A DNA stretch of 64,000 nucleotides from Minisyncoccia bacterium (GCA_044356725.1 JBIKVS010000004.1:28494-92493); one strand, 5' to 3'; shown: positions 220-57,273, counted from the stretch's first letter. Program-made: numbers and translations. The notes: generated by a model not told the origin, from the sequence alone.

Positions 220-407
220 AGATTTAAGTTTATAAGTTTAGCTTTATTATAGCATATAGGGTAATAATTATAAATTATGAACGGTGAGTTATGAATGCCG
301 TAGGGGCGACCTTTCAGTCGCCTGTTATTCTACCCCAAACAGTATGAGATATAACATTGACAAAAAGAGGGAAATGTGCTATGGTTCAGAAGGTTTTTTA
401 CTAAACG

Positions 408-926
408 ATGTCCCCCTCCACCTCCTTTCTCGCTGCCCTCGACGCCGCCCTCTGCGCCGACCCCGCCCTTCGCGCCACTCGTGCCCGCGCAGCCATCACC
501 ACTCTCGCCGCCCCCGGTCAGTCCGATACCAGGAACTATATCACCCACAGCTCTTTAGTCGACAACTGCGCCACCCTTGCTGCCAACATTGCTGCACACG
601 TCGCCACTACCGGCAGAGAGCCCAACCTCACCTCCTGTGACACCCTCGCTGTCGCCATCAACTCTTCTCTTCTTGCTCTCCTTATCGACGGCGCAGCCAT
701 CACCACTCTCGCCGCCCTCGGTCAGTCCGATATCAGGAACTATATCACCCACAGCTCTTTAGTCGACAACTGCGCCACCCTTGCTGCCAACATTGCTGCA
801 CACGTCGCCACTACCGGCAGAGAGCCCAACCTCACCTCCTGTGACACCCTCGCTGTCGCCATCAACTCTTCTCTTCTTGCTCTCCTTACCGACGGCGCAC
901 CCCTCAGCGAATCTCATGAGACGTGA
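408..926 (+). CDS. Hypothetical Ala/Leu/Thr-rich protein encoded across a GC-rich tandem duplication; coding status uncertain.
   Basis: 172-aa ORF whose second half repeats the first (…AITTLAA(P/L)GQSD(T/I)RNYITHSSLVDNCATLAANIAAHVATTGREPNLTSCDTLAVAINSSLLALL…). All six frames are open here because of the high GC, so the open frame is weak evidence by itself. The ORF is followed by a terminator-like hairpin plus T-run at 940-976. Confidence 0.25.
   Translation: MSPSTSFLAALDAALCADPALRATRARAAITTLAAPGQSDTRNYITHSSLVDNCATLAANIAAHVATTGREPNLTSCDTLAVAINSSLLALLIDGAAITTLAALGQSDIRNYITHSSLVDNCATLAANIAAHVATTGREPNLTSCDTLAVAINSSLLALLTDGAPLSESHET
493..900. repeat. Tandem direct repeat: two 204-bp units (493-696 and 697-900), near-identical with two C>T differences near each unit's start. 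A partial third unit lies upstream.
   Basis: Direct reading: 'ccatcaccactctcgccgcc(c/t)cggtcagtccgata(c/t)caggaactatatcacccacag…cttatcgacggcgcag' occurs twice head-to-tail. The local composition is visibly GC-rich compared with the flanking AT-rich DNA. Confidence 0.9.
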
Positions 927-939
927 ATTCACTGTTTCT

Positions 940-976
940 CAACCCCCAGCCCCCGATTGTTTCGGAGGGCTGTTTT
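940..976 (+). terminator. Rho-independent terminator-like hairpin followed by a T-run.
   Basis: 'cagcccccgattgtttcggagggctg' forms an imperfect stem and is followed by 'ttttta'. Confidence 0.45.
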
Positions 977-997
977 TATAAAGTAGATAATATAGTT

Positions 998-1019
998 AAA
1001 TGTTCCACGTGGAACATTT
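998..1019. repeat. 22-bp perfect palindrome aaaTGTTCCACGTGGAACAttt (copy 1 of 3).
   Basis: Exact self-complementary sequence. The same 16-bp core recurs at 6290 and 7026. Confidence 0.9.
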
Positions 1020-1387: not shown

Positions 1388-3196
1388 ATGAATTCACATA
1401 TCCGTAACCTTGCTATTATTGCTCACGTTGACCATGGTAAAACCACTTTGATGGATGCTATTTTGCATCAAACTCAGATTTTTAGAGAGAATCAGGCTGT
1501 TCAGGAGAGAGTGATGGATTCTATGGATTTGGAGCGAGAAAAAGGTATTACTATTAGGGCTAAGAATGCTTCTGTTACTTATAAAGACTATACTATTAAT
1601 TTGATTGACACTCCCGGGCATGCTGATTTTGGAGGAGAAGTAGAGCGAGTTCTTAAAATGGCTGACGGAGCTCTTTTATTGGTGGATTCTAAAGAGGGGC
1701 CAATGCCTCAAACTAAATTTGTACTTAAAAAAGCTTTAGCTTTAGGGCTTCGTGTAGTAGTGGTTATTAACAAAATTGACCGACCTGATGCTAATCCCGA
1801 TGCAGTGGTGGATAAGACTTTTGACTTATTCGTTACTCTGAATGCTAATGATAAGCAATTAGATTTCCCAATTGTGTATGCTTCGGCTATTAATGGTTCG
1901 GCTTCTTTGGAAACTGACCAGACTGGTAAGGATTTGACTGAACTATTCGAGGTTATTGTGAATGAAATACCAGCTCCGACCTCTCCTATTGAAGAGTCTT
2001 TTCGTATGCTGACTTTGAATTTGCAATTTGATAAATTCAAAGGTACTATGGCTGTCGGTAGAATTGATGCTGGTAAGATAGTGAAGGGTATGTCTGTGGT
2101 TAGAATAGACAAAGCAGGTAATCAGACTAAGAATAGTATCACTAGTTTGCTGAAATACAATGGAATGGAATTAGTGGAGGCTACTGAAATTGTAGCTGGA
2201 GATATTGCGGTGATTGCTGGTATTGCCGATATTGAAATCGGAGATACTATTGCAGATGCTCAAAATCCAGTTCAAATTGCCCCTGTAGAGGTGGAAAGCC
2301 CTACTTTGCAGATGATGTTTGCTATCAACGACAGTCCTTTTTCTGGGAAGGAAGGTAAATATTCTACTTCTCGTATGATCCGAGATAGATTATATAAAGA
2401 GCAAGAGACTAATATTAGTTTGAGAATTGAAGATACAGATAGCCCTGACAAATTCTTGGTAGCTGGCCGTGGGGAGTTGCATTTGGCTGTTTTGATTGAG
2501 ACTATGCGACGAGAGGGATATGAGTTTTCTGTTGGAAGGCCTCAAGTAATTCTCCGAGAGAATAATGGAGCTACAGAAGAGCCTTATGAATTATTGAGTC
2601 TAGATGTGCCTGAAGAGTATAGTGGTAAGATTATTGAAGCTGTAAATAAAAGGCAGGGAGAATTAGTGAATATGGAAATTAATGAGCATAATGAGTCTCA
2701 TATTGAATATAAAATTACTACTCAGAATTTGATTGGGCTAAGGAGTGTATTATTGACTTTATCTAAGGGAACTGTGATTATGAATAGTTCTTTCCTGGAA
2801 TATGGTCCAAGAATGTCTAATGGTAAAGGAAGAGCTACCGGGTCTATTGTGTCTCTGGAACTAGGTAAAATAACCAAATATGCTCTGGATGGAGCTTCTG
2901 ATCGAGGTGTGTTTTTTGTGTCTGATGGAACTGAAGTTTATCCTGGTATGGTCTTAGGAGAATCCAATCGGGAACAAGATGTGGAAATAAACCCCATTAA
3001 AGCTAAAAAATTGACCAATATGAGGGCTTCCGGCTCAGATGACGGTGTATTTATTGCCCCTCCAAAAGATATGTCTCTAGAGGCTAGTATTGAGTATTTG
3101 GCTGATGATGAATTGTTGGAAGTGACTCCACTTAGTCTTCGAATTCGCAAAAGAGTATTAGATTCCAATGAGCGAAAGAGATCTAATAGAGGGTAA
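1388..3196 (+). CDS. typA: Translational GTPase TypA/BipA.
   Basis: N-terminus [22 protein letters not shown] with G-domain motifs DTPGHADF and NKID, length about 600 aa. 'HVDHGKTTL' matches BipA rather than LepA. Confidence 0.9.
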
Positions 3197-3942
3197 ATTA
3201 AAAAGCCCCACAGTGTGAGGCTAGGGATGTAAATTTTAATTGAAGTCTATAATTATGCCGATACTGAATATTTCCAAGAGAATAAGAATTTAAGTATAAT
3301 ATGTTTACAAGAGTGACTTGGTAATGTAAACTCTAAAGTATCAGAATATCTATATTGTTCAGAATTTATAGTACTTAAAATCTCCTTTCTCAATATATTT
3401 AAATTTCCATGATACTTACCTCTTATTTTTTGTAGTAATTTAGGGTAGTTCGTATCAGACATTATTTCTGCCCAGTGGCACTTCTGCATTTTCAATTCAG
3501 GTTCTAGAAAAGAAAGAAAATGTATTACATTAACTCTCATGACAGGTCTTGAGTGAGTTTTCTATATTTATATACCATAAATTGTAGTAAAATTGCAAGT
3601 TTTTTGTATTCTGCTATTTCAAAAATATCAAATAATCTTATTAACTATTTACAAAGTCAAATATATATGATATATATTAAATGCTAAGCTATCTTTTTTC
3701 ATCATGTACCCTCGAACAATTTGGTTTTTTTTGTCTAATTTGCTTAACTTTTTGAGTGTAAAGATTGAACATACGTGTTATTTGATTGAGAATTTAGTCA
3801 AATATTCCCTCAAATTACCTCTTTTTTTGGCGGCTATACTACAGAATGGTAGTGTATTTATTTATCACAGAAAAGTAAGAGAAACATACACGAGCACGAG
3901 AACTGAAGCTAATTAATCAATATTTTATTTAAATTTCAAACC

Positions 3943-5397: not shown

Positions 5398-6660
5398 ATG
5401 CAGAATAAAATTAAATTATTTATATATACTAGTATAGGCATAAGTTTGCCATTTTTGATAAGGACAACCTTATTTGAATATAATATTAGAAATATTAGTT
5501 CTCCGTATGCAACTATATATTTACATAGTCTAGATATAATCTTTCTTATAGCTATATTCTTTTTTTGGTGGAAAACTAAAAATCTACCATTTAGTGATAT
5601 AAAAAATGTGGATAAGTTATGGATAACTTTATTTTCTCTTATATTTTTACACTTGTTTTGGGTAAAATATCCTCTTTTGACTTGGGTTTCTGGAATGAGA
5701 TTTTATTTAGGACTAGCCTTGATTTGGTATATAAGTAGATTTCAATATTTAGCCAGAGACCTGAAATACACTATAAACGGACTCTTTATTGGGATGTTAG
5801 CTCAAGCTATTATAGTTATAGCTCAATTTGGATTACAAAAAAATCTTGGATTACCTCTTGTGATAGAACCGGTTTTATCTAATAGTATTGCAGGTGTGGC
5901 TAAAGTTGATATTTTTAACAATACCTTTATAAGGGGTTATGGAACTTTTCCACATCCTAATATATTGGGTTATGTTGGTATATTAGCTTTAATTTTGTTA
6001 TATGCTCAAAAACTAGGCAGAAAACTATCTATAATAATTTACTCGGCTACTATTATTATTGCAGGACTTATAGATCATTATATCTTAACCTCAATACAAG
6101 CTTTTGGGATATCTATTTTGACAGCAACATATCTTTTATACGCTAGATTAGATGGATTTGGTAAGGTTTTTCGTAAATTTATAATTCTTATTCTACACCT
6201 TTTAATCTTACTTAGTTTTTCTAAAACGGCTATAGCATTGCTTTTAGCGTTAGACTTAGTATATTTGACAACATCGACTCAAAAGTCAATGTTCCACGTG
6301 GAACAATTTCAAAGAATATTAAAATCCCTGCCAAGATTATTCGTCAACGCAATGTCCGTATCGGGAATCATATTCTTATGGATTATTCCATATGCACAAA
6401 TTATAGACACCATAACCAAAAGGTTTCTATATGTACAGGATGCTTTTCAAATGATAGGTTCTAATTTATTCTTTGGAGTTGGGTTGGGGCAGTATGTTAT
6501 AAATTTATCTGATAATCGTGAATTATGGCAATATGAGCCGGTGCATAATATACTTTTATTACTATGGAGCGAGCTTGGCTTTATTGGACTTAGTCTTATA
6601 ATAGTAATTTTTTGTGTGGAATGTTACACTTATGTATATGGATACAAAAAACAAAGGTGA
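5398..6660 (+). CDS. O-antigen ligase (Wzy_C)-like polytopic membrane protein.
   Basis: Many TM helices. C-terminal motif …YEPVHNILLLLWSELGFIGLSLIIV (H..N.yL..l.E.G..G) is typical of the O-antigen ligase/Wzy_C family. The CACGTG palindrome at 6290-6305 lies inside the CDS. Confidence 0.6.
   Translation: MQNKIKLFIYTSIGISLPFLIRTTLFEYNIRNISSPYATIYLHSLDIIFLIAIFFFWWKTKNLPFSDIKNVDKLWITLFSLIFLHLFWVKYPLLTWVSGMRFYLGLALIWYISRFQYLARDLKYTINGLFIGMLAQAIIVIAQFGLQKNLGLPLVIEPVLSNSIAGVAKVDIFNNTFIRGYGTFPHPNILGYVGILALILLYAQKLGRKLSIIIYSATIIIAGLIDHYILTSIQAFGISILTATYLLYARLDGFGKVFRKFIILILHLLILLSFSKTAIALLLALDLVYLTTSTQKSMFHVEQFQRILKSLPRLFVNAMSVSGIIFLWIIPYAQIIDTITKRFLYVQDAFQMIGSNLFFGVGLGQYVINLSDNRELWQYEPVHNILLLLWSELGFIGLSLIIVIFCVECYTYVYGYKKQR
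6290..6305. repeat. 16-bp perfect palindrome TGTTCCACGTGGAACA (copy 2 of 3), inside the ligase-like CDS.
   Basis: Exact match to the core at 1001-1016 and 7027-7044. Confidence 0.9.
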
Positions 6661-7025: not shown

Positions 7026-7045
7026 TTGTTCCACGTGGAACAATG
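7026..7045. repeat. 20-bp perfect palindrome atTGTTCCACGTGGAACAat (copy 3 of 3), immediately after the yraN stop codon.
   Basis: Exact palindrome. It sits 736 bp downstream of copy 2. Confidence 0.9.
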
Positions 7046-8346: not shown

Positions 8347-8431
8347 GCTAGGGTGGCGGAATGGTAGACGCAACGGACTTAAAATCCGTCGGTGATTAAA
8401 CACTGTGAGGGTTCAAGTCCCTCTCCTAGTA
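8347..8431 (+). tRNA. tRNA-Leu (anticodon TAA), class II with a long variable arm; CCA not encoded.
   Basis: Hand-folded: acceptor gctaggg/tcctagt (two G-U pairs), D-arm gcg-gaatggtaga-cgc, anticodon stem acgga/tccgt with loop cTTAAaa, long variable arm, T-arm gaggg-ttcaagt-ccctc, discriminator A. Confidence 0.8.
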
Positions 8432-8579
8432 CAAATTATAGAAACAAAAAAGCAATAGTCAGTTTTGACTATTGCTCAGGACTTGAAGGTCGGAGCGATG
8501 TGTGAGTTTGTGCGAAGCACAAGGCGAACACCGCGAGACGGGGTCGCGAGAATTTTCCGTCAGGAAAATTACTTGTGAC

Positions 8580-8602
8580 CAAGTCCCTCTCCTAGTACAA
8601 AT
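8580..8602 (+). repeat. 23-nt direct repeat of the tRNA-Leu(TAA) 3' end (caagtccctctcctagtacaaat), about 150 bp downstream of the tRNA; att-like.
   Basis: Exact duplicate of 8414-8436. The intervening 8437-8579 contains two perfect hairpins (gcaatagtc-agtttt-gactattgc and aattttcc-gtca-ggaaaatt) and a GC-rich segment. Confidence 0.85.
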
Positions 8603-8610
8603 AGAGAAGC

Positions 8611-8635
8611 AGTCCGTTTGGACTGTTTTTTAATT
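8611..8635 (+). terminator. Rho-independent terminator following the second copy of the tRNA 3' end.
   Basis: 'gcagtccgtttggactg' followed by 'tttttt'. Confidence 0.6.
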
Positions 8636-8639
8636 CCCC

Positions 8640-8966
8640 TCTTGAAGGGTGTCCCAAAGGGGCGGGGTGGATGGATTTATAAAACACAGGTGACATAAGG
8701 TCGCCCCTACGGGATGAGTGTAAAGCAAATGTCATTGCCTGCTTTAGGCAGAGATGTCTCCATTGAGCGACCGAAAATACTGTCCTCCCTTGGGGGAGGT
8801 GTCACGAAGTGACGGAGGAGGACAAAAAGCTCAAGTTTCAAAATACTTCCACCCCGTCCAGCGAAGCTGTCCACCCCCTCAATTTATCTCCATCCCTACG
8901 GGAGGTAAACCCGTAGGCAGAGAGGGGAATTTAAGGCAACTGAAAGATCGTTCTCTCCTAGTATAT
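8640..8966. repeat. Block of mosaic GC-rich intergenic repeat modules; these hairpin-forming modules are shared with at least eight other intergenic sites in the window.
   Basis: Contains modules that recur elsewhere in the window: 'aggtcgcccctacg' (family A); 'ctgtcctcccttgggggaggtgtcacgaagtgacggaggaggaca' (family C, compare 29519 and 32158); 'ccaccccgtc…gaggggaatttaa' (compare 4095-4165); and 'tctctcctagtata' (a tRNA-3'-end-like fragment). Confidence 0.7.
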
Positions 8967-8976
8967 CTTTAAAATA

Positions 8977-9066
8977 TAGACAAAAGTTTCAAAATATGGT
9001 ATGTTTCTGATTGTACGGACTCTAGAGCAATTTAGAGTCAAATTTTCTCTACCCTGAGGAGGGGTT
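8977..9066 (+). promoter_or_regulatory. Cassette promoter and 5' leader, copy 1: TAGACA, 17-bp spacer, TATGTT, then a ~55-nt leader with a conserved hairpin and a GAGGAGG ribosome-binding site.
   Basis: About 90% identical to 9657-9747. A related core (TAGACAAAAGT…AAATATG.TAT.GT) appears at 15642. Confidence 0.55.
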
Positions 9067-15486: not shown

Positions 15487-15641
15487 TTAGTGAATTGAAT
15501 TAAAATTCCCCTCTCTTCCTACGGTTTACCTACCGCAGGCAGGGAGATAAATTGAGGGGTGCCCATAGGGCAAGGTGGAAAAACCAGGCGACTGAAAGGT
15601 CGCCCCTACGAGAACTATGAACTAAAATGAGGAATATATTA

Positions 15642-15697
15642 TAGACAAAAGTGGGGAAATATGCTATTGTCTAGGAGTTCCCTCAAACCATCAGGCT
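15642..15697 (+). promoter_or_regulatory. Third copy of the cassette-type promoter core (TAGACA, 17-bp spacer, TATTGT), driving a GC-rich small ORF.
   Basis: 'atagacaaaagtggggaaatatgctattgt' parallels 'atagacaaaagtttcaaaatatggtatgtt' at 8975. Confidence 0.4.
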
Positions 15698-51033: not shown

Positions 51034-51095
51034 TAATTATGAATGGTAAGTTGTAAATTATGAATTTAGTAGGGGCGACCTTTCAGTCGCCTGTA
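51034..51095. repeat. Composite intergenic repeat: family B ('attatgaatggtaagttgtaaattatgaat') followed by family A ('gtaggggcgacctttcagtcgcctg', a GGCGAC/GTCGCC hairpin).
   Basis: The same B+A pairing occurs at 270-326. A copies also occur at 15586-15610 (reverse complement), 20967-20993 and 52023-52047 (reverse complement). B copies also occur at 21085-21130 (reverse complement), 31553-31582 and 55858-55895. Confidence 0.8.
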
Positions 51096-51603: not shown

Positions 51604-52155
51604 TTTGACCCCGTAGTGATGACTTTATATTTACTTGTGCTTTATAAACCTCTAAAGAATAGAATAAAATTAGAAAAAGTTGAATAAATTGAAAGGAGTC
51701 ACTCTTGAGAGACTCCAATGTAATGTTATTGCTCATTTTAATCTTCTAATTTAGCTATAATACAATAACACAATACTACTGCTATTAAATATATAATTAT
51801 ATAAAGCAAATTAGCAAAAAATTTTTCCCAATACCCAACAATCAGATGAACAAATATAGAAAAATAATTCCAGAAAAGACACAATACAAATATATAAGAA
51901 ACAACAGTGAGAATATATTTGCACAATTCTAGTAACTCAAATTTAAGATTAGGCACGGAAAGTCTCCGTATAGTACAATAGACTTATATCATATTTTAAT
52001 ACTTTTGTCTATATTTAAATTCCAGGCGACTGAGAGGTCGCCCCTACGAAAGTCTAAGTGTAAGGTTTGAAGTTCCTTATAATGGCTTGTATAAAAGCGA
52101 TATATAAGATGAATATCTCGATTTACTGGGTATTGAGTTTATATAGTTATTAACA

Positions 52156-56987: not shown

Positions 56988-57074
56988 AACATATTATAAA
57001 CCTACTATAAATACTAGTATTATAGCACTTTTGGCGGATTTTTGTAGGGGAATAATTGTGGGATATTGCCCTTC

Positions 57075-57116
57075 GTCCACCCTCCCCCTTTGGGGACTCC
57101 CTCCAAAGGGAGACAT
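57075..57116. repeat. Family D repeat module (gtccaccctccccctttggggactccctccaaagggagaca).
   Basis: Matches 59156-59197 and, in part, 32385-32404. Confidence 0.8.
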
Positions 57117-57273
57117 TTTAGGACAATGAATTTTTGTCCCCCTTCGGAGGGGGAAGCCCGCGGGGCGGGGGTGGATAACTTAATAACAAAGGTAGGACAG
57201 AAAACAAGAGTAATAGTAGTAATATTCTCAGTATAAAGAGAAAAGACCAGCCTCAAGGTGAGGCGGTCTGTGG

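Follow-up and report, generated by a model that had tools for sequence, protein, structure and literature searches.

The phage moron, one of the described systems that come closest to the locus analysed here, is a concept reportedly due to Hendrix and Juhala. As described, a moron is an open reading frame (ORF) that lies between genes, possesses its own promoter and terminator and has a deviant GC content, with different ORFs being found at the same hot spot (PMC2920897). In the literature on Patescibacteria, we found no description of cassettes or shells such as those reported below. The locus lies near the start of a 64-kb stretch of DNA (hereafter, the window), which a comparison of TypA (its gene being located at 1388-3196) assigns to the freshwater Paceibacteria/Parcubacteria of the CPR, TypA identity being 81-98% in 11 representative genomes.

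A scan in 100-nt windows bore out the claim of a sequence-only reading of this DNA, namely that a GC-rich island of some 600 bp is embedded in an AT-rich genome. GC content is at least 55% from ~376 to ~975, with a peak of 75% near 426-525, as compared with 26-42% in the rest of the window; both the host genome and the 64-kb window average ~33%. The only other spot in the 64 kb to reach 55% is a ~100-nt cluster of hairpin repeats at 57076. To the left of the island lies a ferric-reductase-like gene on the minus strand (1 to ~219, running off the window start), and the other neighbours are typA, cofD, a Wzy-like gene and a methyltransferase gene, with no phage genes seen among the neighbours of the cassette. 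When aligned to the cassette-less relative L008, the window shows only fragmentary similarity after ~232-257, which becomes solid again from ~976. In our assessment, the segment at ~277-998 is probably an accessory, self-contained expression cassette, residing in a variable intergenic slot between the ferric-reductase-like gene and typA.

The repeat modules that had been proposed to bracket the island are real. The left junction of the accessory segment (277-345, plus strand) includes a REP-like, GC-rich hairpin repeat, TAGGGGCGACCTTTCAGTCGCC, which folds at -12 kcal/mol and is present in four copies in the window (301-322, 15587-15608, 51070-51091 and 52025-52046). At the right border of the variable site lies a perfect palindrome, AATGTTCCACGTGGAACATT (999-1018), which is also kept in relatives whose site is empty. 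With CACGTG at its core, this palindrome, (A)ATGTTCCACGTGGAACAT(T), is found at further intergenic sites, giving three copies in the window (999-1018, 6289-6306 and 7026-7043), and it is probably the binding site of a dimeric regulator. More generally, families of short GC-rich hairpin repeats (REP/MITE-like) populate the intergenic regions, with further sites at 1221-1262, 8630-8930 and 57070-57180; they explain most of the minor GC peaks of the window and separate the cassettes of relatives from one another.

Two further features of the window were observed alongside these repeats. The stretch between the palindrome and typA (1036-1140) is highly conserved, also in L005-L015 and L164-L167, with 75 nt being 100% identical to L008. 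It holds a hairpin that exhibits compensatory stem changes among relatives (GAGCTGAGCGCCC / GGAGCTAAGCGCTCC), an invariant TTGCTTAAGCAGA and a TGTCAA...TGACA palindrome, and a scan predicted a minus-strand promoter (1132-1104) and a minus-strand terminator (1059-1037) within it. These elements could constitute a minus-strand small RNA of ~60 nt, or else operators of the typA promoter. Farther downstream, the 3' end of a tRNA gene (8347-8431; CAAGTCCCTCTCCTAGTACAAAT) is repeated after ~165 nt, at 8577-8607, and is followed there by a ~500-nt field of hairpin repeats; this repeated end looks like an att-type scar of an element that was integrated and since lost.

We next turn to the parts of the cassette itself, i.e., an ORF (cargo A) and the shell that encloses it. 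The 5' shell (346-385, plus strand), GAGATATAACATTGACAAAAAGAGGGAAATG, recurs ahead of unrelated ORFs and contains a sigma-70-type promoter, predicted by a promoter scan and by conservation. The promoter proper (357-385) consists of a -35 element TTGACA (357-362), a 17-nt spacer, a TG at 377-378 and a -10 element TATGGT (380-385); in the promoter scan it matches at 10 of 12 positions and has an extended -10. The same ~40 nt are found upstream of unrelated cargos in L005, L012, L164, L166, L167 and L174. Cassette similarity stops just past the -10 element, where a short, cargo-specific 5' leader without a Shine-Dalgarno motif begins (386-407, plus strand). The missing motif is normal for this genome, since it was found in none of the 30 host genes checked. 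Promoters of the cassette type (T[TA]GACAAAAG ... TATGNTAT) also lie ahead of other genes, at 8975-9005 and 15640-15668, and the type thus looks like the general strong-promoter consensus of the lineage.

Downstream, the similarity of the window to other cassettes, which ends at ~385, resumes at ~901, exactly at the end of the second of two tandem repeat units described below. The 3' shell that begins at this point (901-946, plus strand) comprises the last eight codons of the ORF (PLSESHET), the stop codon TGA (924-926) and the palindrome GTGAATTCAC (923-932); its composition, a tail including GTGAATTC followed by AACCCCAGCCCCCGAYNNNTTCGGRGGGCTGTTTTT, recurs behind unrelated ORFs. In L005 and L166, DNA homologous to this stretch follows cargo B's own stop codon; in L099, it forms the tail of cargo D together with its stop. 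This argues that cargo A borrowed its stop from the shell. The terminator-like hairpin noted after the ORF proved to be real as well: the predicted intrinsic terminator (947-977, plus strand) has a 10-bp stem with one bulge (947-972; -18.3 kcal/mol, z = -4.65), followed by TTTTT (973-977). Most cassettes close with its core, CCCAGCCCCCGAYNNNTTCGG, and 13 cassette ends have the entire terminator in common; when the metagenome collection was scanned for the terminator pattern, most matches were chance ones in GC-rich contigs, the relevant ones being L099, L128, L135 and L147. Judging by these predicted elements, the cassette is one transcription unit, made up of a promoter, a 172-codon ORF and a terminator.

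None of the 11 close relatives taken from the genome collection contains the island segment, and cargo A was absent from all genome and metagenome contigs scanned for the protein. What relatives carry at this site instead varies. L005, L164 and L167 hold cargo B (~102 aa in L005), L012 holds cargos C and B, L166 holds cargo E, a small membrane protein, together with B, Ga0207935_1000059 (L135, L099) holds C' and D, L128 holds D', and L174 holds cargo F together with a one-unit form of A. In L006-L011 the site is empty, and L015 has the hairpin repeat only. L008 retains a degenerate promoter scar fused to post-terminator sequence, suggesting loss there rather than first gain in the window strain, and in L167 a cargo-less promoter is found directly behind the terminator. 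These alignments read as a conserved expression shell with variable cargo (families B-F, two cassettes, or none) in related freshwater Paceibacteria. All cargos have a GC content of 41-63%, as compared with 33-38% in the host genomes, cargo A being the extreme.

The 172-aa, Ala/Leu/Thr-rich ORF that had been proposed for the island was found on the plus strand at 408-926, starting with ATG at 408. Its product, which includes the peptide NYITHSSLVDNCATLAANIAAHVATTGR, is acidic (pI 4.9), contains no lysine and consists of 20% Ala, 14% Leu and 12% Thr; an 18-bp mini-repeat in 2.1 copies (440-476, plus strand; Tandem Repeats Finder) encodes DAALCA / DPALRA. The assertion that all six frames stay open is wrong, as only frame 408 is free of stops (402-924), the other five having 2-14 stops each (400-930). 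The open frame alone is weak evidence of a gene, because a stop-free run of ~104 non-redundant codons has, by our own estimate, a chance of ~0.1 at this composition. In the non-redundant part of frame 408, base composition differs strongly between the codon positions (chi-square 62, p = 1.4e-11), with a purine-rich position 1 (G 36%) and a position 3 of 64% C, 24% T, 7% A and 6% G. This is a classic coding signature, and it falls exactly in the open frame. The orientation of the promoter and the terminator agrees with this frame, and the ATG lies 22 nt past the -10 element, as in the other cassettes.

Within the ORF, Tandem Repeats Finder detected a 204-bp period in 2.1 copies (487-906; 97% matches, no indels), bearing out the two head-to-tail units reported previously, i.e., unit 1 at 493-696 and unit 2 at 697-900 (both on the plus strand, 204 bp or 68 codons long). 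With the same boundaries, the units differ at four positions, not at only two C/T positions as had been counted: 514/718 (C/T), 529/733 (C/T), 685/889 (T/C) and 696/900 (G/C). At 98% identity, the duplication is in-frame and recent, in line with the view that it is very recent or homogenised, and the option of a repeat protein was broadly right, given that 68 codons are duplicated in frame within the ORF. The motif GCGCA occurs before unit 1 (487-491), at the junction of the units (691-695; junction sequence CTTATCGACGGCGCAGCCATCACC) and at the end of unit 2 (895-899). Slipped or unequal pairing at this microhomology is the most likely origin of the repeat.

Alleles with a single unit, encoding 104 aa (P0001, P0015 and P0016), were found on four short contigs of 561-1632 bp. 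Two of these are Logan contigs, which match the window exactly in their flanks, and the other two are ENA contigs with extra substitutions, one of which (L174) has a different upstream cassette. Every one-unit allele combines the 5' variants of unit 1 with the 3' variants of unit 2, a pattern that fits equally well with an ancestor of one unit, with the loss of a unit from the two-unit form and with a collapsed assembly; on contigs this short, the one-unit alleles could be collapsed repeats. If the one-unit form is ancestral, three changes have occurred since the duplication, all of them C-to-T, as would be expected for GC-rich DNA in an AT-biased genome.

These alleles raise the question of whether the island might be an assembly artefact, that is, a chimeric join or a mis-expanded repeat. 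Near-identical 204-bp repeats are poorly handled by short-read assemblers, and one-unit versions come from other assemblies of an otherwise identical strain. Against such an artefact, the exact 172-aa product is present on six contigs of up to 118 kb, and the two of these that were read, from two JGI samples, match the window at 100% DNA identity, flanks included. Moreover, the diverged strain L174 has cargo A in the same shell, and units 1 and 2 carry diagnostic differences. We thus hold an artefact to be exceedingly improbable; the uncertainty concerns the number of units (1, 2 or more), not the existence of the island.

Cargo A is an orphan. A word-indexed search of 5.8 billion clusters and a HMMER search of 1.84 billion representative proteins returned no homologue except its own one-unit allele, and there was no match in Pfam, PHROGs, PADLOC, NCBIfam or PDB sequences. 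Peptide-pattern scans of genome, metagenome and viral contigs, as well as tblastn against phages, likewise recovered no homologue. The possibility that the segment matches a known conserved gene of this lineage, raised in the sequence-only reading, is not borne out by these database searches. An AlphaFold2 run on cargo A without an alignment gave an all-helical model with a pLDDT of 43.5, which is unusable; a helical, cytoplasmic protein is predicted.

To gauge selection on cargo A, we counted the differences that separate the alleles P0001, P0015 and P0016 and the two units. There are seven, every one of them non-synonymous, and codon position 2 accounts for six. Synonymous changes make up 27% of the possible substitutions, and under neutrality the chance of finding none among six or seven is ~0.11-0.15; it falls below 0.01 for dN/dS <=0.3 and to ~2e-7 for a dN/dS of 0.03, the value of typA. 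Cargo A is thus not under strong purifying selection of the kind seen in typA. Judged by these differences, the ORF would either be subject to relaxed or diversifying selection or be non-functional.

The latter option corresponds to transcribed junk, i.e., foreign GC-rich DNA caught between the promoter and terminator of the shell, with one frame open by chance, drifting neutrally and lacking any protein function. Such a scenario would account for the substitution pattern (0 synonymous against 7 non-synonymous, compatible with a dN/dS of ~1), the orphan sequence, the low-confidence AlphaFold2 model and the stop codon borrowed from the shell, and GC-rich sequence readily yields open frames. Yet chance would not readily place a coding-type periodicity, with its purine-rich position 1 and pyrimidine-rich position 3, exactly in the open frame, nor the ATG at the distance from the -10 element that is seen in other cassettes. 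In addition, the frame is intact in four distinct alleles, and it was preserved both by the 68-codon duplication and by a templated 12-nt conversion in L174. Sister cassettes, moreover, encode demonstrably conserved proteins. Weighing these points, we regard transcribed junk as unlikely, and favour the translated accessory gene.

Could the product of the cassette be an RNA instead? A structured non-coding element, one of the options offered earlier, is unsupported and was rejected: the segment at 284-976 has no Rfam match at gathering scores, only one weak and unrelated match at E <=1, its fold z-scores are modest (-1.84 on the plus strand, -1.10 on the minus strand), and the three-base periodicity in frame 408 is strong. 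A different proposal is a non-coding regulatory RNA, in which a C-rich transcript (43% C, with CCUCC and CCCCC runs) would pair with G-rich targets, the ORF being incidental. The strong skew of C over G, the C-rich runs of several cargos, the predicted autonomous transcription unit and an ORF without a sign of purifying selection are all compatible with this proposal. However, besides the Rfam and fold results (z-scores of only -1.8 and -1.1), three-base periodicity is unexpected for a small RNA, an anti-Shine-Dalgarno decoy would be left without obvious targets in a genome where 0 of 30 genes have the motif, and a protein, cargo B, is encoded in the same shell. A regulatory RNA is thus very unlikely in our estimation. 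Taken together, these results make it probable that what the island holds is an accessory gene, an orphan that is strain-specific and foreign in composition, rather than a structured RNA or an assembly error.

Cargo B allows a closer look at how such genes evolve. Its family has 10 members with 48 invariant columns, and in five of the six pairs dN/dS lies at 0.25-0.47, as compared with 0.03 for typA; cargo B is clearly a genuine conserved protein. The closely related pair L012/L164 shows 21.5 non-synonymous and 1.5 synonymous differences, and its dS is 0.023 for cargo B as against 0.29 for typA, which indicates a recent exchange of the cassette between lineages. The structural model of cargo B is moderate (pLDDT 71.8); Foldseek searches of PDB and BFVD with it gave nothing below E = 0.01 and no TM-score >0.45, and a profile search of PDB was empty. 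Of note, the copy in L005, a genome whose TypA is 98% identical to that of the window, has an in-frame TGA at codon 12 (3354-3356), where 8 of the 10 aligned family members have TGG (Trp). This TGA is likely a nonsense mutation, making the L005 copy a pseudogene.

Cargo B also provides a link to phages. A homologue of 65% identity (L170, 3330-3635) is encoded on a contig of 53% GC, directly behind helicase and N6/N4 methylase genes, and this helicase shares 76% identity with its counterpart in Synechococcus phage S-LBS1. This arrangement suggests that small genes may be exchanged between phages of other lake bacteria and Paceibacteria. For cargo A, the link is weak. In a blastn search of phage genomes, its first 44 nt (408-451) are 86% identical (E = 8e-5) to the first 44 nt of a Microbacterium (Dismasvirus) phage gene, QMacho gp57 (L175, 1501-1544), which encodes a hypothetical protein of 166 aa, and the alignment runs from start codon to start codon. 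Two codon-shuffled controls of cargo A gave no match in the same type of search. The likeness of the two proteins ends after ~17 residues, and in a family alignment these 17 N-terminal columns reach an hhalign probability of 12.6%. We therefore treat the match as a lead, not a finding.

Composition, too, sets cargo A apart from its host. Its GC content is 63% against ~33% in its surroundings, and its GC3 is 0.70 against 0.24 in host genes, C-ending codons dominating where the host prefers A- or T-ending ones. The suggestion that the island is a horizontally acquired, recently duplicated gene fragment thus stands in part: the foreign codon usage, the absence from 11 relatives and the recent in-frame duplication all speak for it, except that the segment is no fragment, being a complete promoter-ORF-terminator unit.

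Thus, we arrived at a reading in which the cassette is a moron-like accessory gene, swapped by recombination and possibly of phage origin, to which we assign a probability of about 60%. In the mechanism that we propose, the shell would supply a strong sigma-70-type promoter, a 3' tail bearing the stop codon and an intrinsic terminator, and cargo A would be translated in frame from the start at 408. We infer that cargos would be exchanged, stacked and lost through homologous recombination between shell copies or flanking genes following DNA uptake, with no integrase taking part, and that their ultimate source would be phages of organisms with higher GC. Cargo A evolves without strong purifying selection, much like fast-evolving phage-related or conflict-related accessory genes.

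A more far-reaching version of this mechanism can be formulated, which we consider speculative and quite improbable. According to it, Paceibacteria would possess an 'expression slot', a stackable promoter-stop-terminator shell that repeatedly captures small orphan genes without an integrase, taking them from phages that infect neighbours or hosts of higher GC (picocyanobacteria, Microbacteriaceae), these genes being expressed as fast-evolving factors of host manipulation or phage conflict. If true, an epibiotic CPR bacterium would possess a system for capturing genes that needs no integrase.

By itself, the island is nothing out of the ordinary, being an orphan gene that is specific to the strain and has recently been duplicated internally, and it is the setting that is mildly interesting: a streamlined, tiny CPR genome would appear to retain a reusable promoter-to-terminator shell at one fixed site, where small genes, unrelated to one another and foreign in composition, are swapped, stacked and lost among close relatives, some of these genes having links to phages. 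If this holds, the site, being compact and easy to survey, would serve as a marker of gene flow into uncultured Paceibacteria, one that may also hint at their hosts. The locus would also show, cleanly and in nature, how a gene evolves at a very early stage, given its orphan status, its duplication in frame and the C-to-T changes that lead towards the AT-richness of the host.

Several known systems resemble parts of this locus. As an internal tandem duplication at microhomology, with head-to-tail units whose length of 204 bp is divisible by 3, a GCGCA junction and one- and two-unit alleles, the repeat is ordinary and presents nothing unusual. Strain-specific orphan genes in hypervariable hot spots, or small genomic islets, resemble the segment in that they are patchily distributed and atypical in composition, lack homologues, encode rapidly evolving proteins and occupy a fixed place between core genes. 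Unlike islets, the segment is very small (~0.7 kb), has no integrase, tRNA or flanking direct repeats, and possesses a reusable shell.

CPR genomes are rich in diversity-generating retroelements, and the two near-identical repeats recall the template/variable repeat pair of such an element; the stacking of short single-ORF modules at one site, each closing with a hairpin-forming sequence, likewise recalls integron cassettes. Both were rejected. The units are directly tandem within one ORF, and their differences (three C/T, one G/C) do not fall at adenines, as opposed to those of a retroelement pair. Unlike integron cassettes, each cassette here has its own promoter, and its 3' hairpin is a GC stem with a T-run, i.e., an intrinsic terminator; no attC core sites were apparent from the cassette sequences. 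In addition, the genes within ~10 kb, for which the flanks were read, contain no integrase, recombinase or reverse transcriptase domain. The probability of either a retroelement or an integron cassette is, in our view, next to nil.

The phage moron offers a further point of comparison. Like a moron, the cassette is a single ORF between two conserved genes, is variably present in relatives at a hot spot where different ORFs are found, has its own predicted promoter and terminator, conserved across cassettes, and differs in GC content from its surroundings (63% vs ~33%); links to phages exist for cargo B and, weakly, for cargo A. Unlike a moron, it resides in a bacterial (CPR) chromosome between housekeeping genes rather than in a phage or prophage, and for this reason we call it moron-like, not a moron in the strict sense. 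It also differs in what is held constant, as here the shell is conserved while the ORF is swapped, in tandem arrays of one or two cassettes.
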